Of a stretch of 27,096 bases of DNA, positions 2,991-27,096 are shown piece by piece. Origin of the DNA: a bacterium. GTDB lineage: Bacteria > Fidelibacterota > Marinisomatia > Marinisomatales > UBA1611. Position 1 is the first letter of the stretch, and every line of letters begins with the position of its first letter. The stretch is taken from positions 1-27,096 of the forward strand of contig JAYPIC010000006.1 of the NCBI GenBank assembly GCA_038127595.1. The letters run 5' to 3'. The notes below the pieces were generated by a model, which saw only the letters and a list, made by a program, of their open reading frames with translations, was not told the DNA's origin and did no database searches. A program made the translations under genes and the position numbers.

Positions 2991-3102
2991 TTTGAAATCG
3001 AAATTAACTAAACAAAAATCATAAATGAAACATTGTATATGATATATTTTTTAAAAGGTGTTGTTAAATTTTAATAAACAAACAACTACTTTTTAAGGGC
3101 TA

Positions 3103-3837
3103 ATGATAAGAAAAAAATTTGTGATAAGATCTTTAGTAGCGCCATGCTACTCAAAACCATCTTTTTCTTCAGCAAAAATTACTGAGGCTGTATTTGGAGA
3201 AACAGTTGAAGTACTTGAGGTAAAGGATAGCTGGATACATATAAAACAGAAGGATGATTATAAAAGTTGGTTGAAAAATTTTTATGGTACTTTTGAAGCG
3301 AAGCCAATGGAATGTGATTACATTGTGATTGATAAATATCCTTTATTAGTTGGCAACAAACTTTTCAAGAACCATCAATTATATAAGACCATTAATGGTC
3401 ATAATTATGACTTTAGGAAAAAGCCAATAAGAATTGGCGCAGTAAATGAATTTGAACAATTGCTTAGTTATGCAAAAAGTTTAATTGGATGTCCTTACAG
3501 GTGGGGAGGTAAAACTTCGGGAGGATTTGACTGTTCAGGATTTGTCCAGACTATCTTTTTATTAACTGGCATGCTGCTTCCAAGGGATTCTTGGCAGCAA
3601 TCAGAAAAATTTAATCATGCAATTATTGATGGGAAAACAAGCAAACCTGGCGATCTACATTTTTTTGGGAGTGATGGTAAAATATCTCATGTTGGTATTT
3701 CTACAGGAGGTTACAATTTAATTCACTGCCAAGGGTGGGTTAAGGAGGAGTCTTTTGAACATATAGATTCCGCAAACAAAAAATTAGCAGATATGTACAT
3801 GCATACTTGTTCAGTTGAATTAAATTCAGCGCGATGA
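3103..3837 (+). CDS. SH3 + NlpC/P60 (C40) peptidase, YkfC/dipeptidyl-peptidase VI-like
   Basis: N-terminal SH3-like part (TEAVFGETVEVLE..W.HI...DDYKSW), catalytic PYRWGGKTSGGFDCSGFVQ, LPRDSWQQ, SHVGI and IHC. No signal peptide. Confidence 0.88.
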   Translation: MIRKKFVIRSLVAPCYSKPSFSSAKITEAVFGETVEVLEVKDSWIHIKQKDDYKSWLKNFYGTFEAKPMECDYIVIDKYPLLVGNKLFKNHQLYKTINGHNYDFRKKPIRIGAVNEFEQLLSYAKSLIGCPYRWGGKTSGGFDCSGFVQTIFLLTGMLLPRDSWQQSEKFNHAIIDGKTSKPGDLHFFGSDGKISHVGISTGGYNLIHCQGWVKEESFEHIDSANKKLADMYMHTCSVELNSAR

Positions 3838-4373
3838 AAATAAAATTTTCTAATAATAACTTATTAAGCAGCGCAGTATTAGTGCTAAATGCGAATTATT
3901 CTCCGATGACTGTCTGCACTGCTAAAAGAGCTATATCGCTATATTTTTTAGATAAAATTGATATACTATCAAACTATGATGAAAGTATCAGTAGCCCATC
4001 TTTATCGTTAGAGTTACCAAGCGTCATAAAAATAAGGACTTATGTAAAAAATAATAATATGGCAGTTGAAATTAGTAGAAAAAATGTCCTAGTAAGAGAT
4101 AATTATGAGTGTCAATATTGTGGTAAAAAAAGTAAATCGTTAACTGTGGATCATATAATTCCAAAATTTAGAAATGGCCAAGACACTTGGGAAAATCTCG
4201 TTGCTGCTTGCAAAAACTGTAATCAGGCGAAAGGTGAAAAAACTCCTGAGGAAGCAAATATGCCACTAATAAGAAAACCAAAAAGGCCAAATAGAATTCA
4301 TTATTTTCAAAGGTTAGTTAGGAAAAAGCAAGCTGATTGGCGCCCTTATTTATTTATGGAACCTTTGAATTAA
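3834..4373 (+). CDS. HNH endonuclease (Zn-binding, 'VLVLNA' family)
   Basis: VLVLNANYSP N-terminus; RDNYECQYCG..LTVDHIIPK..G.DTWENLVAACKNCNQAKG. ATGA overlap with the upstream gene. Confidence 0.9.
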   Translation: MKIKFSNNNLLSSAVLVLNANYSPMTVCTAKRAISLYFLDKIDILSNYDESISSPSLSLELPSVIKIRTYVKNNNMAVEISRKNVLVRDNYECQYCGKKSKSLTVDHIIPKFRNGQDTWENLVAACKNCNQAKGEKTPEEANMPLIRKPKRPNRIHYFQRLVRKKQADWRPYLFMEPLN

Positions 4374-11069: not shown

Positions 11070-12061
11070 TAATATTAGGTATAGAGACTTCCTGTGATGA
11101 AACGGCGGTTTCAGTTTGTATGGATGGTAAAATATTATCAAATATTGTAGGTTCTCAATTAATTCATTCTAATTTTGGTGGAGTAGTTCCAGAAGTTGCT
11201 TCAAGAGAACATGAAAGACTGTTGAATGACCTAACTGTTAAAGCTATTGATTCAGCCAAAATAAGCATAAATGCGATTAATGGTATTGCAGTAACTAATG
11301 GGCCTGGCTTAGCTGGAGCATTACTTACAGGTGTTAGTTTTGCTAAAGGATTAGCAATTGGTCTGGGAATTGAAATAGTATCAATAAATCATTTAGAGGC
11401 GCATATTATCGCTAATTTATTGGAAAGAGATGATATTAATTACCCTTTTTTATGTTTATTGGTATCTGGAGGGCACACTCAATTATGGTTGATAAAAAAA
11501 ATGGATGATTACACATTGCTAGGTGAAACTAGAGATGATGCTGCTGGAGAGGCGTTTGACAAAGGCGCTAGAATTTTAGGATTGGGTTATCCTGGTGGGC
11601 CAGAAATTGAAAAATGCGCTCAATTTGGCGATAGTAATCTAGTTAAGTTTCCCAGAGCCTTTATTAATTCCCGGACAATTGAATTTAGTTTTAGTGGTTT
11701 AAAAACTTCCTTGCTTTATTATATGGATTCATTTCAAGAGACTAATGAATGTACTTTAAACGATGTAGCCGCAAGTTATCAAAGTGCCATAATTGATTGC
11801 TTGGTTGCTAAAATGAAATTGGCAACCAAGTTAACTAGTGTAAATACAATTTCTATAGCAGGTGGTGTAGCAAAAAATAAATTCTTAAGACAATCAATTG
11901 ATAAAAATTTATCTGATAAAAACATAATTTTTCCTGATTTAAAATATTGCACTGATAACGCAGCTATGATTAGCTACCTTGGAGAGAAAAAATTTCAAAT
12001 GGGTAAGAAAACTAATCTTGATTTTAGCATAAATCCAAATTTCAAAAACAATTTAGATTGA
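11066..12061 (+). CDS. tsaD: tRNA N6-adenosine threonylcarbamoyltransferase TsaD
   Basis: ILGIETSCDET, GGVVPEVASREH, GPGL.GAL, NHLEAH, LLVSGGHT, DDAAGEAFDK, CTDNAAMI. Start moved to ATG 11066 (ATGA overlap, GGGAG SD upstream). Confidence 0.97.
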   Translation: MIILGIETSCDETAVSVCMDGKILSNIVGSQLIHSNFGGVVPEVASREHERLLNDLTVKAIDSAKISINAINGIAVTNGPGLAGALLTGVSFAKGLAIGLGIEIVSINHLEAHIIANLLERDDINYPFLCLLVSGGHTQLWLIKKMDDYTLLGETRDDAAGEAFDKGARILGLGYPGGPEIEKCAQFGDSNLVKFPRAFINSRTIEFSFSGLKTSLLYYMDSFQETNECTLNDVAASYQSAIIDCLVAKMKLATKLTSVNTISIAGGVAKNKFLRQSIDKNLSDKNIIFPDLKYCTDNAAMISYLGEKKFQMGKKTNLDFSINPNFKNNLD

Positions 12062-14187
12062 AAATACAAATTAATTCTGCTTATGATTTAATAATCATAA
12101 CGATAATAATCTCAATTTTAGTTGTATACTTCTCTTATAGATATAGTCTCTCTAGCTCTGAGAATTCAGTTCTTATTTTTTTTAGAGTTTTAATTTCAGC
12201 TCTTTTAATTTTATTAATTTTTAATCCTGTAATTGAGAAAAAAGGCAGTAATAAAATAAGCTTACCTTGGCACATATATATTGATGAGTCTTTAAGTATG
12301 AAATATCATAAACAGCCTTCAGAGTTAGCTTATAAACAGGGAATTCAAAATTTTATTAAAAAAATAAAAGAAAAAAATGTAGACTTTGAAGTTTTTTCAT
12401 TTGGTTCAGACATCGATTCTATAATTGACATATTTGATATAAGTTTAGATGGTAATTCTACAAATCTTGGATTGATATTTGATGAAGTTAATAGCGATTA
12501 TCAACAAAGTCTTGGTGGATTAATTATTTTTACGGATGGTCAAATTAATCAGGGACCTCCATTAGAGGAATTTTATGATGGCGTAGGTAAAGTTCCAGTT
12601 TATACTATAGGTGTAGGAGATACTACTCCCATGCTTGATGTTTTTATTCGTTCTATAGATTCTCCGCCATTAAGTGTTAAAGGTCAAAATGTAAACATTG
12701 ACGTAATTATTTCCAGTACCGGTAATATTAATGAAAGGGTGAATGTTAATTTATTTGATGAAAAAAACAAATTGATTGGATCTAAACTGATAACTATATA
12801 TGGACAAGGTGAAAATGAAATAATTCGCTTTCAAATAAGCCCTGATAAGATTGGTGAAAACCATTTTTCTGTTAAATGTAGCGCATTATCTGATGAAATA
12901 AATATCCATAATAACCAACAGAAAATTAAAATACATGTTATGAAAGACCAATATAACATTGCATTGGTCACAGGTGCTCCAAACTATAATACTAGACTGA
13001 TTAAAAAATTTTTACATGAGCAGGGAAATAATAATATTGATCATTATATAATGAACCAAAAAAATTTCAACCAAAAATTGAAAGATTTTTTAGAGAAAAA
13101 ATATGAAGTTATAATTTTTGATAATAATCCAGTTACATCAAATGCTAAAAAGTGGGAGTCAGTTGCTAGAGTGTTTGCGAAAAAAATAATTTCTCATAGT
13201 TCCAGTTTCTTTATCATACCTGGTCCTGAAGTCGATTTGAGTTCACTTAATAAATACTTAAAAATAATAGATATAGAAGCAGAAATAGTAAATGAAGATT
13301 TAAAAACTAAAACTGATTGGAGGTTTTTAGATTCTTGGCATAGTTTTAATTCATTAGGCAATGAAAAATCCCTACTAGGCAATTATGATACTTATCCTCC
13401 ACAAATTCCTTCCTTTAAATTGGATAATAAATTTGGTGGTGGATTAAATACAACATACGCTACATATTTTGATGGTGAATTTGAGAGCTCTCTTTTAGTA
13501 ATGGGTGAAAAACAACAAATAAGGTATGCACTTTGGAACTCCATTGATTTAGCATCATTAAAGTATATGCTTTCAAATTCTGATTTAAATTATCTATTTG
13601 AGAATTCTATGAGAAAAATTTCGAATTGGCTAATGAAAAAAAGTGATAGCAGAGAGTTTGTTTTTCGAACAGACAAAAATTCATACCAGCATGGAGAATT
13701 GATATCATTAACTGGAGTTTCATCTGATCTGAGTGATAATATAAAAATTAATGACGCTGTTGTAGAACTATACCACAATAATCAATATATTAGCTCAAAG
13801 CCTTTACTTTATGATTTAAATGATAAAAGCTATAAATCAAAATTCTGGGCTCCAAAACCAGGTTTGATAGATTATAAAATAAAGGTAAATAAAGGCATTG
13901 ATAGTTATGAAGTCAACAGTGGCTCATTTAAAGTTCAAGAGAGTCATATTGAATTAAATAAAATATTTTTAAACAAAAATAAATTAACCATTTTAAGTGA
14001 AAAAAGTGGCGGAATTTTTAGAAATTGGGAAGATAGAGATGAAATTATTTCTGAAATAAAAGATGTCGAAAAGATTGAATACTATGTCTCATTTTTTTCA
14101 TTTAGATATAATTATTTTTATGTTAGCTTAATTTTTATATTACTCTCGTTAGAGTGGTTTTATAGAAAAAAAATTGGATTGATTTAA
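12058..14187 (+). CDS. Membrane protein with vWA (MIDAS) domain and Ig-like domain
   Basis: Two N-terminal TMs; IDESLSM (DxSxS), STNLG, FTDGQ; beta-rich middle region; C-terminal TM ending LLSLEWFYRKKIGL. TTG start in a TTGA overlap with the tsaD stop. Confidence 0.75.
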   Translation: MKIQINSAYDLIIITIIISILVVYFSYRYSLSSSENSVLIFFRVLISALLILLIFNPVIEKKGSNKISLPWHIYIDESLSMKYHKQPSELAYKQGIQNFIKKIKEKNVDFEVFSFGSDIDSIIDIFDISLDGNSTNLGLIFDEVNSDYQQSLGGLIIFTDGQINQGPPLEEFYDGVGKVPVYTIGVGDTTPMLDVFIRSIDSPPLSVKGQNVNIDVIISSTGNINERVNVNLFDEKNKLIGSKLITIYGQGENEIIRFQISPDKIGENHFSVKCSALSDEINIHNNQQKIKIHVMKDQYNIALVTGAPNYNTRLIKKFLHEQGNNNIDHYIMNQKNFNQKLKDFLEKKYEVIIFDNNPVTSNAKKWESVARVFAKKIISHSSSFFIIPGPEVDLSSLNKYLKIIDIEAEIVNEDLKTKTDWRFLDSWHSFNSLGNEKSLLGNYDTYPPQIPSFKLDNKFGGGLNTTYATYFDGEFESSLLVMGEKQQIRYALWNSIDLASLKYMLSNSDLNYLFENSMRKISNWLMKKSDSREFVFRTDKNSYQHGELISLTGVSSDLSDNIKINDAVVELYHNNQYISSKPLLYDLNDKSYKSKFWAPKPGLIDYKIKVNKGIDSYEVNSGSFKVQESHIELNKIFLNKNKLTILSEKSGGIFRNWEDRDEIISEIKDVEKIEYYVSFFSFRYNYFYVSLIFILLSLEWFYRKKIGLI

Positions 14188-14210
14188 TTTTTAATAGGTA
14201 AAAATAAATA

Positions 14211-15524
14211 ATGAAAAACATCACAATAATTGGAACTGGTTATGTTGGATTAGTAACTGGCGTCGGTCTGGCTGAATTTGGCAATAAAGTTGTTTGCGTA
14301 GATATCAATAAAGATAAGATTGCTCAATTAAAATCAGGATCGATACCAATTTATGAGCCAAGTTTAGAAGAAATCACAAAGAGAAATATAAAAAGTGAGA
14401 GATTATTTTTTAGCGATGATATATCAAAAGCAATTCAAAAATCTCAAGTTGTAATAATTGCTGTTGGTACACCTCCAACTAGTAGTGGTGATGCTAATAT
14501 GGAATATGTTTATTCTGTAGTAAGGGCAATTAAGCAAAATTTAAATGATTATAAAATTATATGCACAAAAAGTACGGTCCCTATTGGAACAGGAGGGGAA
14601 ATTATAAAAACTTTGAGCAATGATTTTGAAGAAGGGTTTGATTTTGACTATGTATCAAACCCAGAGTTTCTAAGAGAGGGTTCTGCTGTTAAAGATTTTT
14701 TGTGGCCGGATAGAATAATAATTGGGACAACTAGTGACAAAGCATATGAGACAATGTGCGATATTTATAGGCCATTGTATATTAATAAAAACCCAATTAT
14801 GCATACTACCATAGAAACAGCAGAAATGATTAAATATGCTTCTAATTCATTTTTAGCATTAAAAATTAGTTATATAAATGAAATCGCAAATCTTTGTGAA
14901 ACAGTAGGTGCAGACATTCATGATGTGGCTAGTGCCATGGGAAAAGATGGTAGAATAAGTGATAAGTTTTTACATCCAGGCCCTGGTTTTGGAGGCTCTT
15001 GTTTCCCAAAAGACTTAGAATCATTAATCGCCAAGTCAAAAGAAAAAAACATACCGATGGAGACCTTAAGGGCTGCAAAAAAAGCGAATGATAATCAAAA
15101 AGCGAAAATGGGTACAAAACTTGAAAATCTAATTAGCTCTAGTCTTAAAGGTAAAAAAATAGCTGTGTTGGGTCTATCATTTAAAGCAAATACTGATGAT
15201 ATAAGAGAATCTTCATCTATAGATATTATTGAATTTATTTTAAGTAAAGGCGGTATTGTTAGGGCGTATGACCCTATTGCAAATGCCTCAATGATGGAAC
15301 TTTTTAATAATATATCATATTTTGAGGATGTTTATGATGCTATAAAAGGTGCTGATGCTTTAGTAGTAATGACTGAATGGAATGAATTTCGAGCTCTTGA
15401 TTTACCTAGGATAAAGAATATCATGGAAAGTGCTTTTGTTCTAGATACGAGAAACATAATTAATATGTCGGAACTTTCTAAGTTGGGATTCGTATATGAT
15501 AACGTTGGAAGGATAAAAATTTAG
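14211..15524 (+). CDS. ugd: UDP-glucose 6-dehydrogenase
   Basis: IIGTGYVGL, IAVGTP, KSTVP.GT, SNPEFLREG, KYASN.FLA.KIS..NE, catalytic GFGGSCFPKD. Confidence 0.95.
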   Translation: MKNITIIGTGYVGLVTGVGLAEFGNKVVCVDINKDKIAQLKSGSIPIYEPSLEEITKRNIKSERLFFSDDISKAIQKSQVVIIAVGTPPTSSGDANMEYVYSVVRAIKQNLNDYKIICTKSTVPIGTGGEIIKTLSNDFEEGFDFDYVSNPEFLREGSAVKDFLWPDRIIIGTTSDKAYETMCDIYRPLYINKNPIMHTTIETAEMIKYASNSFLALKISYINEIANLCETVGADIHDVASAMGKDGRISDKFLHPGPGFGGSCFPKDLESLIAKSKEKNIPMETLRAAKKANDNQKAKMGTKLENLISSSLKGKKIAVLGLSFKANTDDIRESSSIDIIEFILSKGGIVRAYDPIANASMMELFNNISYFEDVYDAIKGADALVVMTEWNEFRALDLPRIKNIMESAFVLDTRNIINMSELSKLGFVYDNVGRIKI

Positions 15525-15525
15525 T

Positions 15526-16068
15526 TTGGTTTTTGAAGAACAAGCGTTAAAAGGAGTTTTCATAATTAATCCTACTATTTTTTATGATGAAAGAGGTAGT
15601 TTTTTTGAATCTTTTAAAAATAACGTATTTGAAGAAAAGTTAAATTGTAAATTTGTTCAGGATAATGAAGTTTTTTCTAAAAAAGTAGATACACTTAGAG
15701 GATTGCACTATCAAATAGAGAATCCTCAGGCTAAATTGATTCATGTTGTTTCAGGAGCTATAAAAGATGTAATCGTAGATTTAAGGGTGAATTCAAAAAC
15801 TTTTGGTGAAAGTTTTTCAGTGAACCTTGATCATAAAAATCATAAAATGCTATTTATCCCTGGAGGTTTTGCTCATGGATATTTAGTTCTAAAAAAAAAC
15901 ACTATCGTTCAATATAAATGCACTGACTATTATAATCCCAATTCGGAATATGGCATAAGGTGGAATGATTCAGAGATTAACATCAATTGGGGCGTTACTA
16001 ACCCTTATATATCGCAAAAAGATAGTGATCTACCTTTTTTAAAAGACCAAAAGATGTTACCTGTATAA
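15526..16068 (+). CDS. rmlC: dTDP-4-dehydrorhamnose 3,5-epimerase
   Basis: DERGSFFESF, FVQDN, LRGLHYQ, VDLR..S.TFG, IP.GFAHG, YKCTDYY. TTG start. Confidence 0.96.
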   Translation: MVFEEQALKGVFIINPTIFYDERGSFFESFKNNVFEEKLNCKFVQDNEVFSKKVDTLRGLHYQIENPQAKLIHVVSGAIKDVIVDLRVNSKTFGESFSVNLDHKNHKMLFIPGGFAHGYLVLKKNTIVQYKCTDYYNPNSEYGIRWNDSEININWGVTNPYISQKDSDLPFLKDQKMLPV

Positions 16069-17111
16069 TGAAAAATGTTTTAGTTACAGGAGGTTGTGGT
16101 TTTATAGGCTCAAATTTTGTGAAATATTTAATTTCGCTTGAAAACTATTTTCCAATTATAGTTGATAAATTAACATATGCTGGAAGTATAGAAAACTTAA
16201 AACATATCAATACAGAACTTTTTCAGTTTATTGAAGGTGATATATGTGATGAGCAATTGCTTCATAATATTTTTGAAGATTATAAATTTGATGGCGTTTT
16301 TCACTTTGCTGCAGAAAGTCATGTTGATAGATCAATTGATGGTCCAAAAGAGTTCATTGATACAAATATCATAGGAACATTTAATCTCTTACAAGCTTCT
16401 AGAGCTAATATTAGTAAAAATAAAAATAATTTCAAGTTCATTCATATATCTACTGATGAAGTTTATGGTGATCTTGGTCAAGATGGTTATTTTGATGAAG
16501 AAAGTCCTTACAGACCAAATTCGCCATATTCTGCATCCAAAGCAGCTTCAGATCATTTATCAAGGTCATGGGGTAGGACTTTTAACCTACCTGTCATAAT
16601 AACTAATTGCTCAAATAATTACGGAGCTAATCAATTTCCAGAAAAATTAATACCTCTTATAATAATTAATTGCATTGATTGGAAGCAGTTGCCAGTTTAT
16701 GGCAATGGGGAAAATATCAGAGATTGGTTATTTGTTGAAGACCATTGTATTGCATTAGAAACAATTTTTTTGAAAGGCGAAGTAGGAGATACTTATAATA
16801 TTGGAGGGTCTAATGAAATTAGAAATATAGATATTGTGAAAATTATTTGCGACATAATGGATGAACTAAAACCATCAAAAAATGGTAGTTATAGAGATTT
16901 GATAACTTTTGTGGATGACAGGCCTGGACATGATAAAAGGTATGCAGTAGATTCAACTAAACTTCAAAATACCTTAAAATGGAAACCTAGAGAATCATTT
17001 CAATCAGGGATCAAAAAAACAATTGAATGGTATTTAAATAATGAAGATTGGTGGCGTAAAATTCAAAAAAATAATTACAACCAACAAAGATTAGGATTAA
17101 AAAATAAATGA
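16068..17111 (+). CDS. rmlB: dTDP-glucose 4,6-dehydratase
   Basis: [53 protein letters not shown]. Confidence 0.97.
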
Positions 17112-17980
17112 AAGGTATTGTGCTTGCTGGTGGAAACGGAACTAGGCTATATCCATTAACAAAAGTAGTGTCAAAACAATTATTACCAATCTATGACAAA
17201 CCAATGATTTATTATTCGTTGTCCACATTACTACTATCCGGCATTAAGGATATTTTAATTATTTCTACTCCTCAAGATATTAACTTTTATGAGCAATTAT
17301 TTTCTGATGGCAGTCAGTTTGGATTAAGTATCCAATATAAAATTCAACCTAGCCCTGACGGACTAGCACAAGCATTTATTTTAGGAGAAGACTTCATTGG
17401 TGATGATAATGTTGCAATGGTTTTAGGAGATAATATTTTTTACGGTTCTGGGTTTTCAAGTACATTAAAAAAATGTGTAAAAATTGTAAATGATGATAAT
17501 AAAGCTGTGGTTTTTGGTTATGAAGTGAAAAATCCAAAACGTTATGGTGTAGTAGATTTTGATAATAAAGGGAATGCTATAAGCATCGAGGAGAAGCCAC
17601 GATATCCGAAATCAAATTATGCAGTGGTAGGGTTGTATTTTTATCCTAATAGTGTTATAAATATTGCAAAAAGCATCAAGCCATCTCAAAGAGGTGAGTT
17701 AGAAATAACTTCGGTGAATTCGTATTACCTAAATAAAAGTGATTTAAAAGTGAATATTTTAGGTAGAGGATTTGCTTGGCTAGATACTGGTACTATTGAT
17801 TCTATCAATAATGCTTCAAATTTCATAAGAACAATTGAAGAAAGGCAAGGTTTGAAGATAGCTTGTCTAGAAGAAATTGCATACTTAAATAAATTTATCA
17901 ATGAAAGTCAACTTAAAGAATTAATCAAAAAATTACCTGATGATTATGCGAATTATTTGCGTAGATTAATTACCAATTAA
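17108..17980 (+). CDS. rmlA: Glucose-1-phosphate thymidylyltransferase
   Basis: [55 protein letters not shown]. Confidence 0.98.
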
Positions 17981-17993
17981 TTTAACGCAATGT

Positions 17994-19223
17994 ATGTCAA
18001 AAGTATATATAATTTCTACAGCAATTAGTCTAATATTGGGCAATGCCCGGGCTCAAGTTTCTCAGGTTGATATGAGGATTGGCTCTTTTGATAATCTCCG
18101 AAGACAAGATATATCAAGGGAAGATGATAATCTTAAATCACTTGATTTAGAATCTTATAAAGATGTTGCATCCCTTGAGAGTGCCATCTCTCCAGATAAA
18201 TATATTTTAGGACCTGGTGACGAATTGGGTATTAGTATCATAATGGGAGAAAATCTAACTTTACCAACAAAAGTCACGCCCACGGGAGACTTATTTATTC
18301 CTTCTGTTGGGCTTGTAAATGTTTCTGGACAGACATTGGATGAAGCTAGAAAAAAAATAAAAGCATTTATAATTGAAAATGCCTTTCCAAGCGCTAAGGT
18401 TAGCATAGCATTATTGAATATTAGAAAATTTCAAATACAAGTTGTTGGCGCTGTTAATTCCTCAGGTTTCAAAGAGATCTCAGCTTTAGATAGGCTAGAT
18501 AAAATTATTTTTAATTCAGAGGGTTTTCATCCTCTAGCAAAAGAATTTGATATTTCCATAGAGCGCGGGAACGGTGAAAAAGAAAAAATTAATTTTTTAA
18601 ATTTTTTACGTATAGGCGATTTAAAATCTAATCCAACTTTCCTTGAGGGTGATATTATCCTTGTTCCTTTTGGAGATCTATATTTGAATTCTGTTTCAAT
18701 TAGAGGACACATTGAGAATGCTGGTTATGATATTATTGAAGAGAATGAAAGTCTATTAAGTTTCTTGAACAGATCTGTTGCTTTAATTAATGAGACAAAC
18801 TTAATGAGTATCCTTGTTACTAGAAATGAAAATGGTACAGATAAAATTTACAATGTTAGTCCGAAAGATTTTTCTAATTTTATTTTGTCTAATGGTGATA
18901 TCGTAGATATACCTAGAGATGATGGCATAATGGTCAACGGTTTCGTTCAAAAGCCAGGCGCATATGCTTATGTCCCAGGGTACTTAGCTTATAATTATAT
19001 AAGCATGGCAGGTGGTAATACCAAAGATGGAAGTATAGATAAGATAAAGATAATTCACTCTAATGGTTCTAGCAGTAGGAATGTTAACACTATTCTTAAA
19101 CGGGGAGATGTAATCATTGTAGAGCGCTCTACTATAAATACATTAGCCGGCAATATGAGTATACTACAAATTGTTGCATCTTTATTAACAATTTATATGA
19201 CTTATTTAAGCTCCTCAAAATAA
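17994..19223 (+). CDS. Polysaccharide export protein, OPX family (Wza/KpsD-like; Poly_export + SLBB repeats)
   Basis: Signal peptide ending ARA-Q. YILGPGDEL..VTPTGDLFIPSVGLVNVSGQTL export motif, SLBB repeats (VVGAVN, L.EGDIILVP, VNGFVQKPGAY, AGG, LKRGDVIIV) and a C-terminal hydrophobic helix. Confidence 0.88.
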   Translation: MSKVYIISTAISLILGNARAQVSQVDMRIGSFDNLRRQDISREDDNLKSLDLESYKDVASLESAISPDKYILGPGDELGISIIMGENLTLPTKVTPTGDLFIPSVGLVNVSGQTLDEARKKIKAFIIENAFPSAKVSIALLNIRKFQIQVVGAVNSSGFKEISALDRLDKIIFNSEGFHPLAKEFDISIERGNGEKEKINFLNFLRIGDLKSNPTFLEGDIILVPFGDLYLNSVSIRGHIENAGYDIIEENESLLSFLNRSVALINETNLMSILVTRNENGTDKIYNVSPKDFSNFILSNGDIVDIPRDDGIMVNGFVQKPGAYAYVPGYLAYNYISMAGGNTKDGSIDKIKIIHSNGSSSRNVNTILKRGDVIIVERSTINTLAGNMSILQIVASLLTIYMTYLSSSK

Positions 19224-20452
19224 TGAAGCTAACTCCTCACGAAAAAAAGATTCTCGCACTAATTGAAAAGAACCCTGAAATAATAACCGACACAAAAAAA
19301 CGTTCAGTCATAGCAGAGGAAAATGGACTAACTGAAAAAACGCTAAGAAACAGAATTGGGGATCTTAAAAAATATGGTGTAATAAACCTCGAAAATAATT
19401 TTAAATCTAAAGTAGCACAAAATTCAACACCAGCTGATGTAATTAATGAAGAAAATATTTCCGATACTTTTTCAGTTTTAAAAAAGGAGCGAAGATTTAT
19501 ATTTAAAATTTCAAGTATAGCAGGTTTAATAGGATTAGTTTATGCTTTAATAGCTACTCCATTTTATCAATCTACTACAACGATGTATCCGGCTTTAGAA
19601 TCTGAAAGCTCTGGCGGAATACTTGGTAGTAGTATCAAAGGATTAGCAGAGTCTTACGGTTTGATGGGTTTGGGATCTGCACCAACTTATAATATTCCTG
19701 ATATCGTATTAAGTAGAAGAATAAAAAAGAATATCATTTTATCTAAATGGCAATCTAATGCTTTTCCTGATAGTTCAAATTTGATAAAGTTCTGGGAAAT
19801 AGATAAACCAAATAAGTTTTCACCTTTCATTATTCTTGACGTTTTTAAATCATTAATGCCCAGCGGGCAAGGTTTTTCAACGAGCGCAGATAAATTACAC
19901 TTGGAGAATGCGATCGAAAAGCTTCAAAGACTCATTTCTGTCAGTGAAGAGCAGTCTGGCTTGATTGTTGTATCTGTACTAATGGAAGATCCGAACCTAG
20001 CTGCTAGTATTACAAATTACATAGCAGATTATGTTAAAGAGTTCATTTCAATCGAACAGGAAAAAGAAGCAATAAAACAAAAGGAATTCATTTATGATCA
20101 AATGTTATCAGCAAAGAGTGATCTATCGGATTCTGAATTGAAGTTAACAAACTTTTTTAAAAAATACCCTCTAGCATTAGGTAACCCAGATTTGCAACTA
20201 CAGCAAGGTAGGCTTGCACGTGAAATTGAAGAAAATCAGGCTGTATATATTACACTGCGACAACAATATGAGATAGCTAAGATAGAAGCAGAAGAAGATA
20301 AGTTATTTATAAATATTTTAGATACTGGTGATGTTGCTGTAAGGAAGAGCAAACCCAAAAGATTATTAATATTATTATCCTCAATTATGTTTGGTATGAT
20401 GAGTTCGGTTCTAATAATTCTGAATAGAAATAAATTATTATTCAAACAATAA
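19223..20452 (+). CDS. Wzz/PCP-type polysaccharide co-polymerase with an N-terminal helix-turn-helix domain and no tyrosine-kinase domain
   Basis: aa 1-54 are HTH-like. aa ~75-123 are a Wzz N-terminus with TM1 and PFYQSTTTMYP. Periplasmic region has SGLIVVSV..EDPNLAA.I.N and a coiled coil. C-terminal ILD...A.RKSKPKRLLIL precedes TM2, and the protein ends ~10 aa later. Confidence 0.85.
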   Translation: MKLTPHEKKILALIEKNPEIITDTKKRSVIAEENGLTEKTLRNRIGDLKKYGVINLENNFKSKVAQNSTPADVINEENISDTFSVLKKERRFIFKISSIAGLIGLVYALIATPFYQSTTTMYPALESESSGGILGSSIKGLAESYGLMGLGSAPTYNIPDIVLSRRIKKNIILSKWQSNAFPDSSNLIKFWEIDKPNKFSPFIILDVFKSLMPSGQGFSTSADKLHLENAIEKLQRLISVSEEQSGLIVVSVLMEDPNLAASITNYIADYVKEFISIEQEKEAIKQKEFIYDQMLSAKSDLSDSELKLTNFFKKYPLALGNPDLQLQQGRLAREIEENQAVYITLRQQYEIAKIEAEEDKLFINILDTGDVAVRKSKPKRLLILLSSIMFGMMSSVLIILNRNKLLFKQ

Positions 20453-21625
20453 ATGTTAATAGACTACATTAATCATTTAGCTTTATTTCAATACATAGGC
20501 GGGTTATTAATTTGGTTTTTTTTATTATTTTTACTTGAACAATATTTAGCTTCATCTAAAAATCTAAGTTATTTTGAAAAAAAGTATTTTTTAGGATATT
20601 TTGTAATTCTATCACTATTTGCTATAGTACGTATCTATACCAACTACCTTCCTTATACTCTAGACACTAAAACATATCTATCCGTTGCTGAAAGTATATC
20701 TCAAAAAAATGAATTTTATTTTTTTGGTGCATTCCTTTATAGCAGTTTCATTTATATAATTCAGGCCATTACTTTTAATAATCACTATGCTATTTTATTT
20801 ATAAATAACTTCATATTTATCATAGCACTAATTGATCTTCTTGGCATGATTCCTAATAACCAAAAAAAATCATTATGGTTATGGTCCTTATTTTTATTTC
20901 TGTACCCATCGATATATTGGTTTATACCTAATGTTTTAAGGGAAGCTGTTTTCTTTTTATGTTTGGTTAGAGTACTTAAACATTCAATCTTAATTAAAAA
21001 TTCAAGGTTAATTAGTTATAACTCAATACTACTAGTAATTTTTTCAATTCTTTGTGTCGCGCTTCGACCTCAGGTGCTTCCAATGATTTACCTATGGGTA
21101 ACTTTCATGCTATTTAAAAAAAGCATTTTTAATTTGATTTTTGTATCATTATTTGGTGTCGTCCTTCTTTCGAATGACTTTATGACATCTGAATATTTAA
21201 ATAAAGTTTCTTTTGAATATCTAGAGGCAAAAAAAACAGAGGGTGCTACAAACGTACCTACAATTGCATTTCAAGAAAACATCATTCCTACCAGTTTTTC
21301 GGAATTAGTATCATTATCTCCATATCTAGTTTTTAGATTTTTATTTGCGCCATTTCCATGGGAATTATCTAACCTTAAGTATTTGTTTGCTTTTTTAGAT
21401 TCTACAATTATGCTTTTACTTTTTATTACGTTCGCTTGGATTGTTTTAAAGGGATATGTACATAGTTGGGATTTTATAATATTCCCCTTTATGTTTATTG
21501 TTGTACTGGGAATATTTGAAATCGCATTTACTGGTGCTGTTAGACATCGCATGCCGTATGTATTAATAATGTCTACGCTTTTACTAAATCTTCCAACCTC
21601 CTTTGTCCGCAAAGGTAACTATTAA
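20453..21625 (+). CDS. wzy: Wzy-like polysaccharide polymerase (multi-pass membrane protein)
   Basis: About 10 TM segments, LREA and LRPQ loop motifs, FLFAPFPW and G.VRHRMP near the C-terminus. Sits between the PCP and the flippase. Confidence 0.65.
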   Translation: MLIDYINHLALFQYIGGLLIWFFLLFLLEQYLASSKNLSYFEKKYFLGYFVILSLFAIVRIYTNYLPYTLDTKTYLSVAESISQKNEFYFFGAFLYSSFIYIIQAITFNNHYAILFINNFIFIIALIDLLGMIPNNQKKSLWLWSLFLFLYPSIYWFIPNVLREAVFFLCLVRVLKHSILIKNSRLISYNSILLVIFSILCVALRPQVLPMIYLWVTFMLFKKSIFNLIFVSLFGVVLLSNDFMTSEYLNKVSFEYLEAKKTEGATNVPTIAFQENIIPTSFSELVSLSPYLVFRFLFAPFPWELSNLKYLFAFLDSTIMLLLFITFAWIVLKGYVHSWDFIIFPFMFIVVLGIFEIAFTGAVRHRMPYVLIMSTLLLNLPTSFVRKGNY

Positions 21626-21660
21626 CAAATGGTTTAAATTTTATAATTTAAATTAAATAG

Positions 21661-23091
21661 ATGTCTAAAGGTCTCATTGGTAAAAGAAGTATAATATATA
21701 CTCTTTCAAAAATAATCTCAGCTATTTTAAGTTTATTAAGTATTAGTCTTTTTACAAGGATATTCGATGCTGATGCATATGGGCAGTATCTTCTTTTTGT
21801 TTCGTATGTTACTTTAATTTGCTCACTTTTTTTTTGGTGGCATAGATTATCTGTATATAGATATTATCATAAGTACAAAGATCAATATAGCTCTTTTTTG
21901 AAAACTAGTTATATTTCTTTCTTAATTATTGTTTTATTGCTTCTGTCAGCTTCATTAGCAATATATTTTTATCCATTTGAAAATCAAAAATTAATTCTTG
22001 GATTAATACCATTTTGCATTTTTGCTGCAATTTTTAAATCAAATTTTGATTTAAATCAGAGTTTATTCAATATTAGTCGAAGAGATAATTTATTTTGTTT
22101 TAATATAATTTTTAGACCTTTGCTATTTGTTTCACTTAGTTTGATTTCCCATCAATATTTAAAAGTATATGATCATGCTTTAATGTATGCTTTTATTATA
22201 TCATTTTTTTTAGTAGCAATTATTTCAGATTTTTTAATTTTTAAAAATACTTCAGTTGGCGGTTTTGAAAAAAAAATAATAACAAAGTTCTACTCATATG
22301 GTTTTCCCCTGACGGGATTGTTTATTTTTGATTATATATTGACCTTTTCAGATAGATTATTAATTGGCCATTATTTAGGTTCCGAAATGGTAGGAATGTA
22401 TGGAGCTAATTATGATTTAATAAAGATGATGGTTCTTTTCGGTATGGTAATCCAAGGTTATATCATTTATCCAGAATTAAATAAAACATTTGAAAAAAAT
22501 AATATAATTGAGGTCAAAAAATTAATGACCTTTAACCTTAATATTTTCGTAACTGTTTTTTTACCTTTGTGCATTTTTATTATTTATTTTAACGATTCAA
22601 TTAGTTCACTTTTCATTGGGAACCAGTTTACTAGACAATCATCAGAATTGATTCCTATTTTTTCAATTATTTTTCTTATATGGGGATTGAAGATCCATCA
22701 TATTGATTATATTTTTCAATTAAAGGAAAAAACTTCTGTTTCCATGTACATTTTATTTTTTGGTAGTTTAATTAATTTAATTCTTAATTTCATATTAATA
22801 CCAAGAATAGAACTAATTGCTGCAAGTTACGCTACGCTTTCATCCTATTTCATAATATTATTAGTAAGTTTTTTTATTAGTAGAAATTATTTAAAAGTAA
22901 AAATTGACATACTTATTATAGCAAAAACCATAATGTTTTTAGGATCTGGTTTAATATTCTCAATTATTTTAGGTAGGTATTTTCAAAATGAGGTATTAAG
23001 TATGGTTGCATTTTTAATCATTTATATTACTTTAGCTTTTAAATTTAATTATCACTCTCTAAAACCTTTTTTATCTAAATTATATTTTTAA
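21661..23091 (+). CDS. wzx: Wzx oligosaccharide flippase
   Basis: 12-14 TM segments; SIIY..SKII, FTRIF..DAYG.Y, YGFPL, SDRLLIG.YLG...VG.Y, N..LNFILIP. Confidence 0.88.
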   Translation: MSKGLIGKRSIIYTLSKIISAILSLLSISLFTRIFDADAYGQYLLFVSYVTLICSLFFWWHRLSVYRYYHKYKDQYSSFLKTSYISFLIIVLLLLSASLAIYFYPFENQKLILGLIPFCIFAAIFKSNFDLNQSLFNISRRDNLFCFNIIFRPLLFVSLSLISHQYLKVYDHALMYAFIISFFLVAIISDFLIFKNTSVGGFEKKIITKFYSYGFPLTGLFIFDYILTFSDRLLIGHYLGSEMVGMYGANYDLIKMMVLFGMVIQGYIIYPELNKTFEKNNIIEVKKLMTFNLNIFVTVFLPLCIFIIYFNDSISSLFIGNQFTRQSSELIPIFSIIFLIWGLKIHHIDYIFQLKEKTSVSMYILFFGSLINLILNFILIPRIELIAASYATLSSYFIILLVSFFISRNYLKVKIDILIIAKTIMFLGSGLIFSIILGRYFQNEVLSMVAFLIIYITLAFKFNYHSLKPFLSKLYF

Positions 23092-23094
23092 AAT

Positions 23095-23901
23095 ATGTCA
23101 ACTCCTACACTTAGCATAGTTATTTCAACGATTGACAAAAATTTTGAAAAATTTGTTAAAAATTTCCAGTTTGGAAAATTACAAAACGCTGATGAGGTCA
23201 TTATCATAGTTCAAGGTAATGGAAAACTGGTGCATCATTCTGAATTAGCATCTTTCAATGTAATAGTTGAAAAGCGTTATGGCTTAAGCATAAGTAGAAA
23301 CATTGGCATTGAAAATTCAAGCTCTGATTTTATTTGGTTCTTGGATGATGATGTTTACTTATTTGATTATAGCATTGATAAAATAAAAGATCATCTAAAT
23401 AGAAATCCATCATTTGACTTACATACTATTAGAATGGAATGCCATGACGCTGCACCATATAAAAAATATTCAAATAAGACTAGATTTGGTCGATTTGATT
23501 CTCTTAAAATTTCTTCTGTAGAATTGATTGCTTCAAAAAAGTTTATCAAGGAGCACAATGTGAGGTTTAATGAAAATTTAGGTTTAGGTTCAAATTATCC
23601 TTCAACTGAGGAGAATATTTTTTATCTAGATCTATTTGATAAAGGCGGACTGGTATCTCACTATCCAGAATTTCTTATAAAGCACGAATATATAAATCGT
23701 AAAGTTATTCATTTTAAGGACGAATTCATCCTAAAAGCAAAAGGTGCATTTTGCAGAAGATATGGTGGCCTAGTAGGTTTTATGATTTTGGGATATTATT
23801 CATTAAAGTGTTTATTTATAAGTAAAAACTTTTTAATGATGCTAAATCTATTTTTTGGGTATGTAAATGCTCAAACAATTTTTGGGCTTTATGATGAGTG
23901 A
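23095..23901 (+). CDS. Glycosyltransferase family 2
   Basis: LSIVIST, GLSISRNIGI, WFLDDD (DxD), FNENLGLG...EE. Confidence 0.88.
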   Translation: MSTPTLSIVISTIDKNFEKFVKNFQFGKLQNADEVIIIVQGNGKLVHHSELASFNVIVEKRYGLSISRNIGIENSSSDFIWFLDDDVYLFDYSIDKIKDHLNRNPSFDLHTIRMECHDAAPYKKYSNKTRFGRFDSLKISSVELIASKKFIKEHNVRFNENLGLGSNYPSTEENIFYLDLFDKGGLVSHYPEFLIKHEYINRKVIHFKDEFILKAKGAFCRRYGGLVGFMILGYYSLKCLFISKNFLMMLNLFFGYVNAQTIFGLYDE

Positions 23902-24649
23902 TCTTGTTACAGTTATTACTCCGATGTATAACTCTGGTAAATATATAGAAGAAACTTTGAATTCCGTAATCAGTCAGACTTATGAAAATTGGGAGTTATT
24001 TATTATTGATGATGGGTCATCAGATAATTGTGTTGAATTAGTTAGTGATTTTAAAAAAAATGATGATAGGATAAAACTTATTATAAATGTAGAAAATCAA
24101 GGGGCTGCTATATCAAGAAACATTGGAATAAGAGAAGCAAATGGAAGGTACATTGCTTTCCTAGATAGTGATGATTTATGGGTCCCAACTAAGTTGGAAG
24201 AACAAATAAATTTCATGTCAAAGAATCAATTAGCTTTATCATATAGCTCCTACGAGAAAATTGACGAGTTCGGTAATCATATAAAAAATATAAATGTAGT
24301 TAATACTCAGACCACTTATCATAATTTATTAAAAAGCAATTATATTGGTTGTTTAACCGCGATGATAGATTTAAAAATGATGGAGCAAAAAAAAATATAT
24401 ATGCCCAATATTACAACTCGGCATGATCATGGACTTTGGTTAGCTATCGTAAGAAAAGGATTTAATGTGTCTGGCAATCCTAAGGTCTTAGCTAAATACC
24501 GTTACAGAAAAGGCTCAATTTCATTTAGCAAATTTAAAAGCGGGTATTATCAATGGAAACTTTATAGAGATGTTGAAAAAATAAATTTATTAAGTAGTAT
24601 TTATTACATGGTTTGCTGGGCTTGGTATGGATCTTTAAAGAGGATTTAA
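23891..24649 (+). CDS. Glycosyltransferase family 2 (TuaG-like)
   Basis: LVTVITPMYNS, QTYENWEL.IIDDGSSD, GAAISRN.GI, IAFLDSDDLW, IGCLTA. Start moved to ATG 23891 (or 23894). Confidence 0.92.
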   Translation: MMSDLVTVITPMYNSGKYIEETLNSVISQTYENWELFIIDDGSSDNCVELVSDFKKNDDRIKLIINVENQGAAISRNIGIREANGRYIAFLDSDDLWVPTKLEEQINFMSKNQLALSYSSYEKIDEFGNHIKNINVVNTQTTYHNLLKSNYIGCLTAMIDLKMMEQKKIYMPNITTRHDHGLWLAIVRKGFNVSGNPKVLAKYRYRKGSISFSKFKSGYYQWKLYRDVEKINLLSSIYYMVCWAWYGSLKRI

Positions 24650-24658
24650 AAACTTTGT

Positions 24659-26266
24659 TTACCAATTAATATCAATGCCCATGATGAATTCTTTATTTTT
24701 TTTATTCTGATTTTCAAATCCATACGAATGTGGATTGTCTATTTGGCTAGTTCTGTATGTACCAATTATTTTGATCATATTAGTTAGATACAAGTGTAAA
24801 TGAATTTCCATAATGTTTTTTGAATAGTTTTGATCTAGAAGAAAATCAGTATTAAAATCATTTTCCTTGTTGCGGCTATCATAATTATCTTGAATATTTG
24901 ATCCTAGTCCAATGCCTTTATGAATTTTTTCAAACGAAAATTGTACCATTACATTAGGATTTGGGGTGTAGAAAGATTCAGCTCGGAATGAAGCGCTGCT
25001 AGGTCCATTTATGGCGCCAATTGTAACATTTCTATTAGAAAAAGAAAAATCAGGGTGAGTAAATGTCCAAGGCCTTGTTGCCGTATATTCTAATCTCAAA
25101 TCAGGTAATTTCATATTTGATGAAGAAAGAAAAATGCCAAATTGATAAGAATACTTATTACCCCACCAATCGCTGAATAAATCTGACCAAGAAAGTTCAT
25201 CAATTACTAAAGTATTATAAACAATTGCACCTGGAAACAAAACATACCCAAAATCAAATGATAATAAGATATTATCTAAATCTCCTAGATTATGTTCTTG
25301 AGCCCAAAAGAACGAAATAGGATTTAAATAACCTAACTCAGGGGATCTATTACCATAAACCACGATTTCAGAAATAGAAAATTTAAATTTATCTGTCGGC
25401 TTGTATTGGATCCTATGACCTGCAATAAATTTTTCTAATTTTTTATTATCTTTATGTATTTCATCTATTGATTTATCAATCAAGGATCCATGAAAATATT
25501 CAAAATTAAATTTTTCAGATTTCTTTAGTAAACTAAAACGGTTGAAGGGAATTGCACTTGCAGATATTAAAGGTGAATTACCTGACGACCATCCCCAAGA
25601 AAAGGGTCTATTTGACATTTCAATATCAAACAATACACCCTTTAAATATAGAGAGGTATGATTTTTATACCAAAAAGTTGTATTGATTTCGTCAAAATAT
25701 TTTGTCCATTCACCCTGATAATCATTTGAAATCCAAATCTGCTTACCCGTGTGACGGAACATTGAAAATGTTGAGTTAAAGAACAGCTTTTGTCCAATAA
25801 TGCCGTTGATAGTAATTTTATCTGTAAAAAGATATTCATCTGAATTTTGGATTGGCTGATAGATAAATTTTTCATTAAAACTCATCCAAAGCAATGTGGA
25901 ATCTGAACTTACTTTTAATAAGTAGTCCTTTTTAATGTTTAAATTTTTGTTTTTCAGAAAATCAAAATGACTAATAAGTTGGTTCTTTTTTTTAGAAACT
26001 AATTCAGAGGTATCTTGGTTAGGAATGTTGATATCCCAAATACTTCGCATTATTAATGCTTCATTCTTATTCCCGAATAATTTATTTAAATCAACGGAGC
26101 TTATATGGTTTTGATCAAAATAATTTAGATTGACTTCTGCCCGAGCAGCTAATCTTTTTGCAATTATGTTAGAGAGATGATTTAATTCAGTGGGTATTTG
26201 ACTGTTTAAAATACTTTTATTTAAAAAAAATATAAAAAAAACTATTTTAGTCATTACTTTTTTCAT
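24659..26266 (-). CDS. Capsule assembly Wzi-family outer-membrane beta-barrel
   Basis: Signal-like N-terminus; FSWG..SGNSPLIS, FIAGHRIQY, SEIVVYG.R, YLNP, DNILLSFD, YQFG, LRLEYT.TRPWTFTH; C-terminal ...MGIDINW. Confidence 0.7.
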   Translation of the reverse strand: MKKVMTKIVFFIFFLNKSILNSQIPTELNHLSNIIAKRLAARAEVNLNYFDQNHISSVDLNKLFGNKNEALIMRSIWDINIPNQDTSELVSKKKNQLISHFDFLKNKNLNIKKDYLLKVSSDSTLLWMSFNEKFIYQPIQNSDEYLFTDKITINGIIGQKLFFNSTFSMFRHTGKQIWISNDYQGEWTKYFDEINTTFWYKNHTSLYLKGVLFDIEMSNRPFSWGWSSGNSPLISASAIPFNRFSLLKKSEKFNFEYFHGSLIDKSIDEIHKDNKKLEKFIAGHRIQYKPTDKFKFSISEIVVYGNRSPELGYLNPISFFWAQEHNLGDLDNILLSFDFGYVLFPGAIVYNTLVIDELSWSDLFSDWWGNKYSYQFGIFLSSSNMKLPDLRLEYTATRPWTFTHPDFSFSNRNVTIGAINGPSSASFRAESFYTPNPNVMVQFSFEKIHKGIGLGSNIQDNYDSRNKENDFNTDFLLDQNYSKNIMEIHLHLYLTNMIKIIGTYRTSQIDNPHSYGFENQNKKNKEFIMGIDINW

Positions 26267-26456
26267 TATCGTTGCATTTACTACACTTGAATGTTAATTT
26301 TAAATTCCAATTTAAGGAATCCTATCGAAAAAAAACGCTATCAGTTTGTCATTTAATAAATAGAAGTCATTACCCTTATCTGGCAAGCCTGGAGGCGTCA
26401 CTCCATAATTTTTAATTGACGTTAAATATCTAATATAGTTATTTGATTAATATTAT

Positions 26457-27096
26457 ATGGAAATAATAAATCAGTTATTAGTACGAATACCTAAGTGGAT
26501 TGTATCATGGATATTAGTCTTTTTGGATGCAACTGCTGGATATATCGTTTTAAAGAATATATTCATCCAATTTGAATTAGATTTTTCAGTTTCCTCTGTA
26601 TTTGTTGCTTTGCAAATTTTCTGGTGCTTTCTTTTTTGGATTACAAATTTATACAGTGGTGATGCACAAACATCAAGGTTCGTAGAAACTGAAAATCTAA
26701 TAAAATTAACATTTTTCATAATGGCTGCTGCAGTATTTTTGATTGGTATTGAAGTAGATCTTGGCCCTTTACGGTCCCAATATATAATTCGATACTGGAT
26801 ATTCTTCTCATCCTCTGTAATATTAATCAGATGGATAGTTAGAACAATTCAAAAACAATTGCTTAAAAAAGGTTTCGGTCGGCATAATGTTATTGTGGTG
26901 GGTACAGGTGAAAATTCAAAATATGTCACAGAAAAGTTATTAAACCATGGACAAAAATTATATAATGTCTTTGGCACCATTAAAGCAGATGGTGAAATAA
27001 ATGGGGATATAGAATCATTGGTGATAAATCTTGGCAATGAGGAAGATATAAAAGCTATAATTTCAAAAAACCCCGTTTCTGATATTGTTATAGCAT
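26457..27096 (+). CDS. Initiating polyprenyl-phosphate sugar phosphotransferase (WcaJ/WbaP-like), 5' part; runs off the window and is absent from the ORF track
   Basis: Own translation from ATG 26457: MEIINQLLVRIPKWIVSWILVFLDATAG...FWITNLYSG...SRFVETENLIK...IRWIVRTIQKQLLKKGFGRHNVIVVGTGENS...LGNEEDIKAIISKNPVSDIVIA. This is four TMs followed by the Rossmann-like domain, open to the window edge. Confidence 0.85.
   Translation, partial: MEIINQLLVRIPKWIVSWILVFLDATAGYIVLKNIFIQFELDFSVSSVFVALQIFWCFLFWITNLYSGDAQTSRFVETENLIKLTFFIMAAAVFLIGIEVDLGPLRSQYIIRYWIFFSSSVILIRWIVRTIQKQLLKKGFGRHNVIVVGTGENSKYVTEKLLNHGQKLYNVFGTIKADGEINGDIESLVINLGNEEDIKAIISKNPVSDIVIA

Follow-up and report, generated by a model that had tools for sequence, protein, structure and literature searches.

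The DNA considered here is a 27,096-nucleotide stretch, hereafter the window (GenBank assembly GCA_038127595.1, contig JAYPIC010000006.1, positions 1 to 27,096), from a bacterium of the order Marinisomatales in the phylum Fidelibacterota. Within it lies a gene, at 19223-20452, whose product carries a helix-turn-helix (HTH) head, placed N-terminally, on the body of a polysaccharide co-polymerase (PCP). This fusion is real and order-wide, is undescribed as far as searched, and joins a PCP and a membrane-anchored regulator in one protein. The recognition helix of its head, here called type I, is near-invariant, and the head co-occurs tightly with an 8-bp palindrome, GCCCGGGC, whose position turns over between lineages; GCCCGGGC is a DNA word under selection, travelling with the type I head. 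Based on these comparisons, the head very likely binds GCCCGGGC, and the HTH-headed PCP probably does so from the inner membrane, thereby tuning transcription of the genes for the export machine.

Architecture of the fusion protein

The gene and the parts of its product are as follows (ORF, open reading frame; TM, transmembrane helix).

19223..20452, + strand: HTH-PCP fusion gene (type I head plus Wzz/GNVR, kinase-less), 409 aa; from ORF, Pfam and homologues
19223..19387, + strand: type I head, residues 1-55; from HTH_24, AlphaFold and fold comparison
19334..19375, + strand: predicted recognition helix, residues 38-51, with EKTLRNRI core; from the heads alignment and a Csa3 match
19388..19459, + strand: variable linker, residues 56-79; from column conservation
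19496..19558, + strand: TM1, about residues 92-112; hydropathy peak, inside the Pfam Wzz match
19559..20362, + strand: predicted periplasmic PCP body, between the TM helices; location inferred from PCP topology
20363..20425, + strand: TM2, about residues 381-401, followed by a tail of 8 residues; from hydropathy and Pfam

The ORF of 409 aa contains zero internal stops, and its ATG overlaps the stop codon of wza. Since the frame is stop-free and no ATG, GTG or TTG occurs in frame among the linker codons (residues 56-80), the product is one polypeptide, as had been proposed in an earlier reading of these letters alone (the sequence-only reading); the in-frame linker described there also stands, with its length corrected from ~20 to about 24 aa and its sequence unconserved (0 of 24 linker columns are ≥90 % conserved, versus 22 of 56 head columns). 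Pfam places Wzz (PF02706) at residues 80-129, with 29.7 bits against a cut-off of 25.5, and GNVR (PF13807) at residues 329-403, with 44.4 bits against 27.7, while matches to the NCBIfam Wzc, EpsF and WzzB models all fall below cut-off. Residues 1-60 alone score 23.3 bits with HTH_24 (cut-off 21.9), and the full protein only 16.8 bits, which is why databases miss the head. The C-terminal bacterial tyrosine kinase (BY-kinase) is absent, as anticipated: only the 8-residue tail follows TM2, and Pfam gives no AAA_31/CbiA match, in contrast to the true Wzc of another locus (L132), which does show one. With a DNA-binding-type domain and two hydropathy-defined TM helices in the same chain, the suggested ToxR-like topology is upheld.

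Assembly artefact and read-through of two genes are ruled out by homologues and by bridging DNA contigs. The head is present in 119 of 121 sequences (the query plus the 120 listed of 506 matches), the two others starting in or after the linker, and contigs of two independent public DNA runs (X4, covering 19256-19821, and X8, covering 19343-19786) run from the head through the linker into TM1, free of indels and with 0 differences. Contigs of RNA runs match portions of both wza and the fusion gene; contigs alone cannot show transcription, strand or start.

The N-terminus folds, in prediction, as an HTH domain. An AlphaFold model of the head, built with an alignment of 37 heads, has a mean local confidence (pLDDT) of 93.2 and helices at residues 5-16, 18-21, 24-33 and 38-51. 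Among 48,161 solved chains, the nine top rows are all of Lrp/AsnC fold (Z 6.7-7.4, rmsd 1.6-2.3 A), Z values that alone may reflect a common arrangement; the best match is PH0061 (2dbb; VIA Z 7.4, rmsd 1.6 A, 50 residues). Foldseek also ranked Lrp/AsnC top, but at E≥0.11. By sequence, 27 of the 37 heads match HTH_24 at E≤0.01, and the PDB sequence that matches best is that of the Csa3 recognition helix (E 1.7e-5). Of the Lrp/AsnC-like and MarR-like (winged) resemblances claimed earlier, the first is thus retained and the second dropped, given the extra short helix (18-21) and the lack of a conserved wing. Although the fold is shared with Lrp/AsnC regulators, the fusion protein differs from them in that helix, in having linker and Wzz after the head in place of a C-terminal RAM effector domain, and in Pfam matches of HTH_AsnC type that stay below cut-off. 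The recognition helix is conserved as expected, EKTLRNRI being intact in 54 of 61 heads, with six single conservative changes and one ambiguous residue; the invariant residues of the head are basic and lie on this helix.

Distribution and evolution of the type I head

The named homologues belong to Marinimicrobia/Neomarinimicrobiota (Atlas name, Fidelibacterota). Within the phylum the head was found in 104 of 401 genomes, 101 of 214 in its own order and three of 187 outside it (one a weak 96-aa frame, two on short contigs and maybe misbinned), and it is single-copy in all but two carrier genomes. One contig of f5-like type I content (L088) sits in a genome of another order (G241), through misbinning or recent transfer. 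A head profile searched against 1.84 billion representative sequences gave 113 matches, in which all 22 full-length (≥380 aa) proteins with an N-terminal head are PCPs (hand count), the short matches resemble cut fragments and about nine weak tail matches are unrelated HTH proteins. No intact stand-alone relative occurs among the 113, which speaks against a scheme in which the head is freed by cleavage in the linker or TM1 and then binds GCCCGGGC as a soluble regulator. Such a scheme would suit the unconserved, length-variable linker, and regulated proteolysis is known among membrane regulators; however, no cleavage motif is conserved, and a lone 55-residue head would have no dimerisation element with which to read a palindrome. 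Cleavage is considered very improbable.

The retrieval of 60 head-matching loci brought the type I set, with the query, to 61. Where identity to the query falls to 18-28 % over the PCP body, the head still shares 47-73 %, whereas head-less PCPs of sister orders have bodies 32-44 % identical to that of the query. In body trees (118 rows; 43 chosen rows) the type I head appears on two separate PCP clades, and a single clade for type I bodies is rejected (p-AU 5.9e-61; 43-row subset, LG+G4 quick tree). The two-clade pattern needs domain swap or repeated loss, and unrooted trees cannot tell which. One locus of the window's own genus (L045, G382) has the same head, site position and locus as the window, and its PCP body is of the other clade, 27 % identical. 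Comparison of these two sequences suggests recombination at or just after the head during swaps of capsule cassettes. In three loci (L031 in G182, L035 in G243 and L147 in G239) rmlB/rmlA, wza or the CI-type PCP gene is fragmented, by frameshift or assembly error.

A palindrome that accompanies the head

The candidate site and the sequences related to it in the window are listed next.

18045..18052, no strand: palindrome GCCCGGGC, candidate head-binding site, in wza codons Ala18-Arg19-Ala20 (GCC CGG GCT)
18038..18041, + strand: additional GGGC half-site that precedes the palindrome by 3 bp, as in most sites of family f1
14357..14364, no strand: decayed site position (ugd +146, Glu-Pro-Gly codons), here GCCAAGTT; used by other families

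GCCCGGGC consists of two GCCC half-sites and was first seen as the sole invariant word in 14 aligned AT-rich gaps between serS and wza. The window holds one perfect copy only, 1178 bp upstream of the fusion gene, where rare synonymous codons of wza spell it (chance 0.002 under local codon usage), and it occupies the identical place in 5 of 5 genus-g1 loci examined. The three intergenic targets put forward from the sequence alone (26267-26456, 21626-21660 and 14188-14210) hold no GCCCGGGC; the site lies inside wza instead.

The link with the head was assessed in several ways. Of the 61 type I loci, 50 contain GCCCGGGC, and six of the 11 others have <2.4 kb of upstream DNA; among 20 loci that lack a type I head, two contain it. 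In an unbiased ranking of all 8-mers it came first, with 49 of 53 upstream 6-kb stretches (1.4 expected), one of 17 head-less loci and 0 of 52 downstream stretches; with the 14 discovery loci left out, it was still found in 35 of 39 upstream stretches. Its presence was then predicted beforehand for 20 newly fetched loci, two of which proved too short, and it was found in 17 of the 18 full-length stretches, the sole miss being a genus (g21) for which a miss was predicted; eight control words occurred in 0-1 of the 18 each. Counting places where the protein sequence permits the word, GCCCGGGC is used in 57 of 300 upstream (2.4 expected), one of 75 downstream and one of 86 in head-less loci. At ugd +146 the codons CCC GGG occur in 30 of 37 head-bearing versus 0 of 11 head-less genes (hand count). 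Examination of 15 head-less genomes of the order for wza-wzz and GCCCGGGC showed that family f12 (2/2) has an orthologous wza-wzz without the head and also without an upstream GCCCGGGC, and that one genome (G160) has a single copy inside the gene for a 709-aa protein.

The position of GCCCGGGC varies by lineage: the serS/wza gap, wza +51, wza ~+200, ugd +146, +309, ~+720 and +765, and the 3' end of the 709-aa gene. It stands at ugd +146 in seven families and at +309 in most of family f5, where +146 retains 7 of 8 letters; in the window's genus it stands at wza +51, and ugd +146 has decayed. Because it is placed differently across lineages, the site was re-made after loss. Many loci have two copies, 230-620 bp apart.

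The type I loci are of two kinds. The kind seen in the window follows a housekeeping run, rluB-cmk-rpsA-ybbR-tsaD-709-aa gene-ugd-rml; in the inverted kind, represented by 14 family-f1 loci, the cluster adjoins serS across a 230-410-bp gap. Labels such as rluB, cmk, rpsA, serS and scpB in the locus maps are a reading of BLAST clusters, mostly without a family test. In 12 of the 14 inverted loci GCCCGGGC lies 9-10 nt before a -35-like hexamer that is followed by a 17-nt spacer and a TAnnnT box, and in the other two it lies about 60 nt before TTGACA. An internal promoter 14 nt after the window's site (18067-18095, 10 of 12) was discarded, as it is not kept in G239, and promoter-like matches around this region are fewer than in shuffles (66 vs 83). 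An RNA hairpin was rejected too, since a perfect 8-bp palindrome leaves no loop and the word stands upstream of promoter-like boxes in the inverted loci, as was a control element of serS, since the window genome's own serS has no copy and the site goes with wza and HTH-wzz.

Across the window's own genome (G000), GCCCGGGC narrowly tops the 256 palindromes (4.8x, next 4.5x). A genome-wide regulon is unsupported: there are five copies against 1.0 expected, and the four besides the window's are not near polysaccharide genes. Of these four (C41:992, C80:5042, C100:2184 and C126:1911), three fall within ORFs that by inspection resemble ribBA, cytochrome c biogenesis and outer-membrane-protein genes; the other stands in a gap of 59 bp, 37 bp ahead of a 377-aa gene that by inspection is synthase-like. 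In many head-bearing genomes GCCCGGGC is strongly depleted against a reversed control word, with counts of 3 vs 46 in G148, 2 vs 32 in G012 and 9 vs 55 in G313, for example, but not in others, such as G230 (42 vs 3); outside the order, GCCCGGGC always exceeds the reversed control when counts are large.

Other HTH heads on PCPs of the same order

A further 42 PCP genes, chosen partly for long frames, were examined. XRE/HTH_3 heads, with HTH_3 over cut-off, occur on PCPs in L108 and L111-L113 and on another body in L109; PF01381 accompanies PF02706 in 18 of 53 matches. Heads resembling the CI repressor were found at seven loci (L114, L117, L119, L125, L128, L134 and L147; of six scanned, four pass the Phage_CI_repr cut-off), and nine loci have a second CI-like type (L120, L122, L124, L126, L129-L131, L133 and L137; of seven scanned, one passes). 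The XRE- and CI-like heads align to the type I profile over 19-20 generic HTH columns only, and GCCCGGGC was found in 0 of 21 loci with type II-IV heads. All three XRE-type loci for which upstream DNA is available, from two genera, share a repeat, TTGAC-N5-GTCAA, over a TTGACA box ahead of wza; the pattern was found in two unrelated loci too. A 10-mer match in L111 was discarded, being inside wza. Paralogues of XRE and CI type sit at second polysaccharide loci, and one complete genome (G185) holds a type I PCP, a PCP of the second CI-like type and a plain PCP. Identical HTH-PCP proteins occur in L124 (G199) and L126 (G290), genomes of two families, through misbinning or recent transfer.

Proposed mode of action

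The sequence-only reading had offered autoregulation of capsule genes or tethering of the locus; comparative evidence now supplies the specific DNA target, GCCCGGGC, at which binding by the head is inferred. In Lrp proteins, a C-terminal domain provides the pairing of DNA-binding heads. Because the type I head has no dimerisation domain of its own, the ring of the PCP is proposed to supply paired heads for the two GCCC half-sites, and two sites 230-620 bp apart would allow a DNA loop. PCPs have two TM helices and cytoplasmic ends and form ring oligomers, such as the Wzc octamer (PMC12004946, accessible part). Occupancy of the site would report the amount of assembled co-polymerase and feed back on transcription of the cluster, a readout that may replace the kinase control that the locus is without. 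A feedback repressor is more likely than an activator, on account of the intragenic and paired sites and of the XRE-type repeat over a -35 box; the activator-like position in the inverted loci weighs against this preference.

Several observations do not sit easily with regulation through GCCCGGGC. In genus g21 the head is intact and no GCCCGGGC is found even with one mismatch (3/3 loci), and G012, G148 and G202 carry only 7-of-8 matches. Conversely, genus g28 has GCCCGGGC at ugd +717 in 2 of 2 genomes though the wza-wzz cluster is absent (these genomes, with GC of 45-49 %, have about 90 copies each), G174 carries a copy downstream of a head-less wzz, and the four other copies in the window's own genome lie in or near non-polysaccharide genes. 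Some sites stand upstream of a promoter and others as far as 770 bp into a gene, a spread that fits no single regulatory geometry, and a fixed place ahead of a weak -35 box could serve activation just as well as repression. For the CI-like heads a shared motif was not found (7 and 8 loci). Finally, the genomes are kin, and behind the counts stand a handful of independent gains and losses instead of dozens.

Some of these points would also be met if another protein, a soluble regulator or methylase co-inherited with the head, read GCCCGGGC, and the head were a module for protein contact. The HTH of RodZ is such a contact module, for MreB, and a protein of this kind (2xvc) stands among the fold matches as a reminder that HTH folds serve protein contacts too; the head-site link is, moreover, a correlation, with a head and no site in g21 and a site and no cluster in g28. 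Yet the three unrelated HTH classes at the same position have DNA binding in common, not one partner surface, the invariant residues are the basic ones of the recognition helix, and GCCCGGGC tracks the type I head, being missing from all 21 type II-IV loci. A separate reader of the site is judged improbable.

Pure tethering is the more serious rival, though still unlikely: the head would hold the locus at the membrane by the export machine, with no direct change in transcription rate. Its purpose, under the same degree of doubt, might be coupled transcription, translation and insertion, or the positioning of capsule synthesis relative to the chromosome. The freedom of site position within about 5.5 kb, mostly intragenic, fits this, but every site lies upstream of the fusion gene, where the cluster starts, the distance to a promoter-like box is fixed in 12 of 14 inverted loci, and the XRE-type repeat overlaps a -35 box. 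If stray anchors are costly, depletion of GCCCGGGC is expected, and among genomes with a control count ≥8 the reversed control indeed outnumbers the word in 17 of 27 that bear the head and in 0 of 70 outside the order (hand count); eight of the 27, however, show no depletion, and only one control word was used. Precedents for a tether are RocS/CpsD, which link capsule machinery, membrane and DNA (10.1101/359943, accessible part), and ChiS, which brings a locus to the membrane (PMC11856585, accessible part).

Transcriptional tuning by the HTH-headed PCP, then, is the preferred reading. A wider proposition, offered with slightly more doubt than belief, is that Marinimicrobia repeatedly made the co-polymerase ring a multi-headed DNA binder, with at least three unrelated HTH classes and at least four fusions, and that the type I machine would clamp a re-writable 8-bp operon address, reading the state of the trans-envelope channel onto its genes without a kinase or a soluble regulator.

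Relation to known systems

With the known PCP classes, PCP-2a (Wzc), PCP-2b (CapA/CapB) and PCP-1 (Wzz), the fusion protein has in common two TM helices, Wzz and GNVR domains, and neighbours encoding an outer-membrane polysaccharide export (OPX) protein, a flippase and a putative polymerase; unlike PCP-2a, it has an N-terminal HTH instead of a C-terminal BY-kinase. As described in the accessible part of PMC12004946, PCP classes carry or partner a kinase, EcpK is a pseudokinase, and an HTH-bearing PCP is not mentioned. ToxR, CadC, TcpP and ChiS/TfoS likewise combine a cytoplasmic DNA-binding-type domain, a TM anchor and a periplasmic domain in one chain, with the difference that the periplasmic part of the fusion protein belongs to the structure of a secretion machine instead of being a dedicated sensor. 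In a survey of transmembrane regulators (PMC10269533), whose architecture table contains HTH_3 6,259 times, a term search of the text and nine supplements gave 0 occurrences of Wzz or GNVR; Marinimicrobia are unnamed there, and the lineage may be unsampled.

The closest functional analogy is CpsA of Streptococcus agalactiae, a capsule-locus membrane protein of the LCP family that binds the cps promoter with its N-terminus and takes part in capsule assembly with the remainder (PMC8875755, accessible part). CpsA differs in being an LCP ligase of a Gram-positive organism and not a PCP, and homology is not expected. RocS, which works with CpsD in Streptococcus pneumoniae, is also a membrane HTH protein that joins DNA and capsule machinery, but as a separate protein with an amphipathic anchor that acts via the BY-kinase and ParB in chromosome segregation, according to the part of 10.1101/359943 that is accessible. 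Literature searches, with most subscription journals outside their coverage, found no description of an HTH-PCP fusion.

The control of Wzx/Wzy machines without a BY-kinase, and communication between envelope machines and the chromosome, are the open questions addressed here. If the proposal is true, subunits of secretion machines join the transmembrane regulators, and GCCCGGGC is a rare instance of an operator maintained through synonymous codon choice and re-created in different genes; it would also describe control of surface polysaccharide in an abundant uncultured marine phylum. Natural controls exist in f12, without head and site, g21, without the site, and the XRE heads, with another repeat.

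The gene cluster and other features of the window

The fusion gene lies in a Wzx/Wzy cluster with wza, a flippase, family 2 glycosyltransferases (GT2), a Wzi-like and a WcaJ-like gene, and, by inference, Wzy.

14211..17980, + strand: sugar-nucleotide genes of ugd, rmlC, rmlB and rmlA type; from family matches
17994..19223, + strand: wza-like gene for outer-membrane export (OPX), immediately preceding the fusion; from Pfam Poly_export and SLBB and gene maps
20453..21625, + strand: hydrophobic ORF of 390 aa with no family match, likely the Wzy polymerase (inferred from position)
21661..24649, + strand: Wzx-type flippase and two GT2 glycosyltransferases; from Pfam
24659..26266, - strand: Wzi-like capsule assembly protein; Pfam E 4.5e-5, below cut-off
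26457..27095, + strand: WcaJ/WbaP-like initiating transferase, start only; below cut-off, partial

The fusion gene sits behind wza in every locus that reaches that far, that is, in all but truncated loci. No BY-kinase scores over the TIGR01007 cut-off in the window's own genome (95.8 % complete), although a divergent pseudokinase of EcpK type could escape; two weak kinase-profile matches are ParA-like and Mrp-like. A dedicated antiterminator of NusG type was dismissed, as the genome has one NusG only. The wcaJ-like gene (L157 458-1866) is broken by an N gap just past the end of the window, an assembly gap and not a real split.

Further upstream, a 709-aa ORF (12058-14187) has no Pfam match; across the class, 52 of the 81 mapped loci keep it in the interval from tsaD to ugd. 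The long housekeeping run starts with an SH3-NlpC/P60 peptidase and an HNH protein (3103-4373). Before it, a cobalamin riboswitch on the reverse strand (2835-3020; Rfam RF00174, 72.7 bits) stands upstream of a 386-aa ORF (1718-2878) with a weak DUF5074 match and a likely role in B12 uptake, and a 526-aa ORF (141-1721) has no family better than E 0.02. The gap between wzi and wcaJ holds a second conserved element (26314-26350), with a GGAATCCTATCGA core at 26316, which matches the pre-wza leader of the inverted f1 loci. An Rfam search of this conserved GGAATCCTATCGA-type leader gave no match; the element has one copy in the window's own genome and may serve polysaccharide genes as a family-specific promoter or leader.

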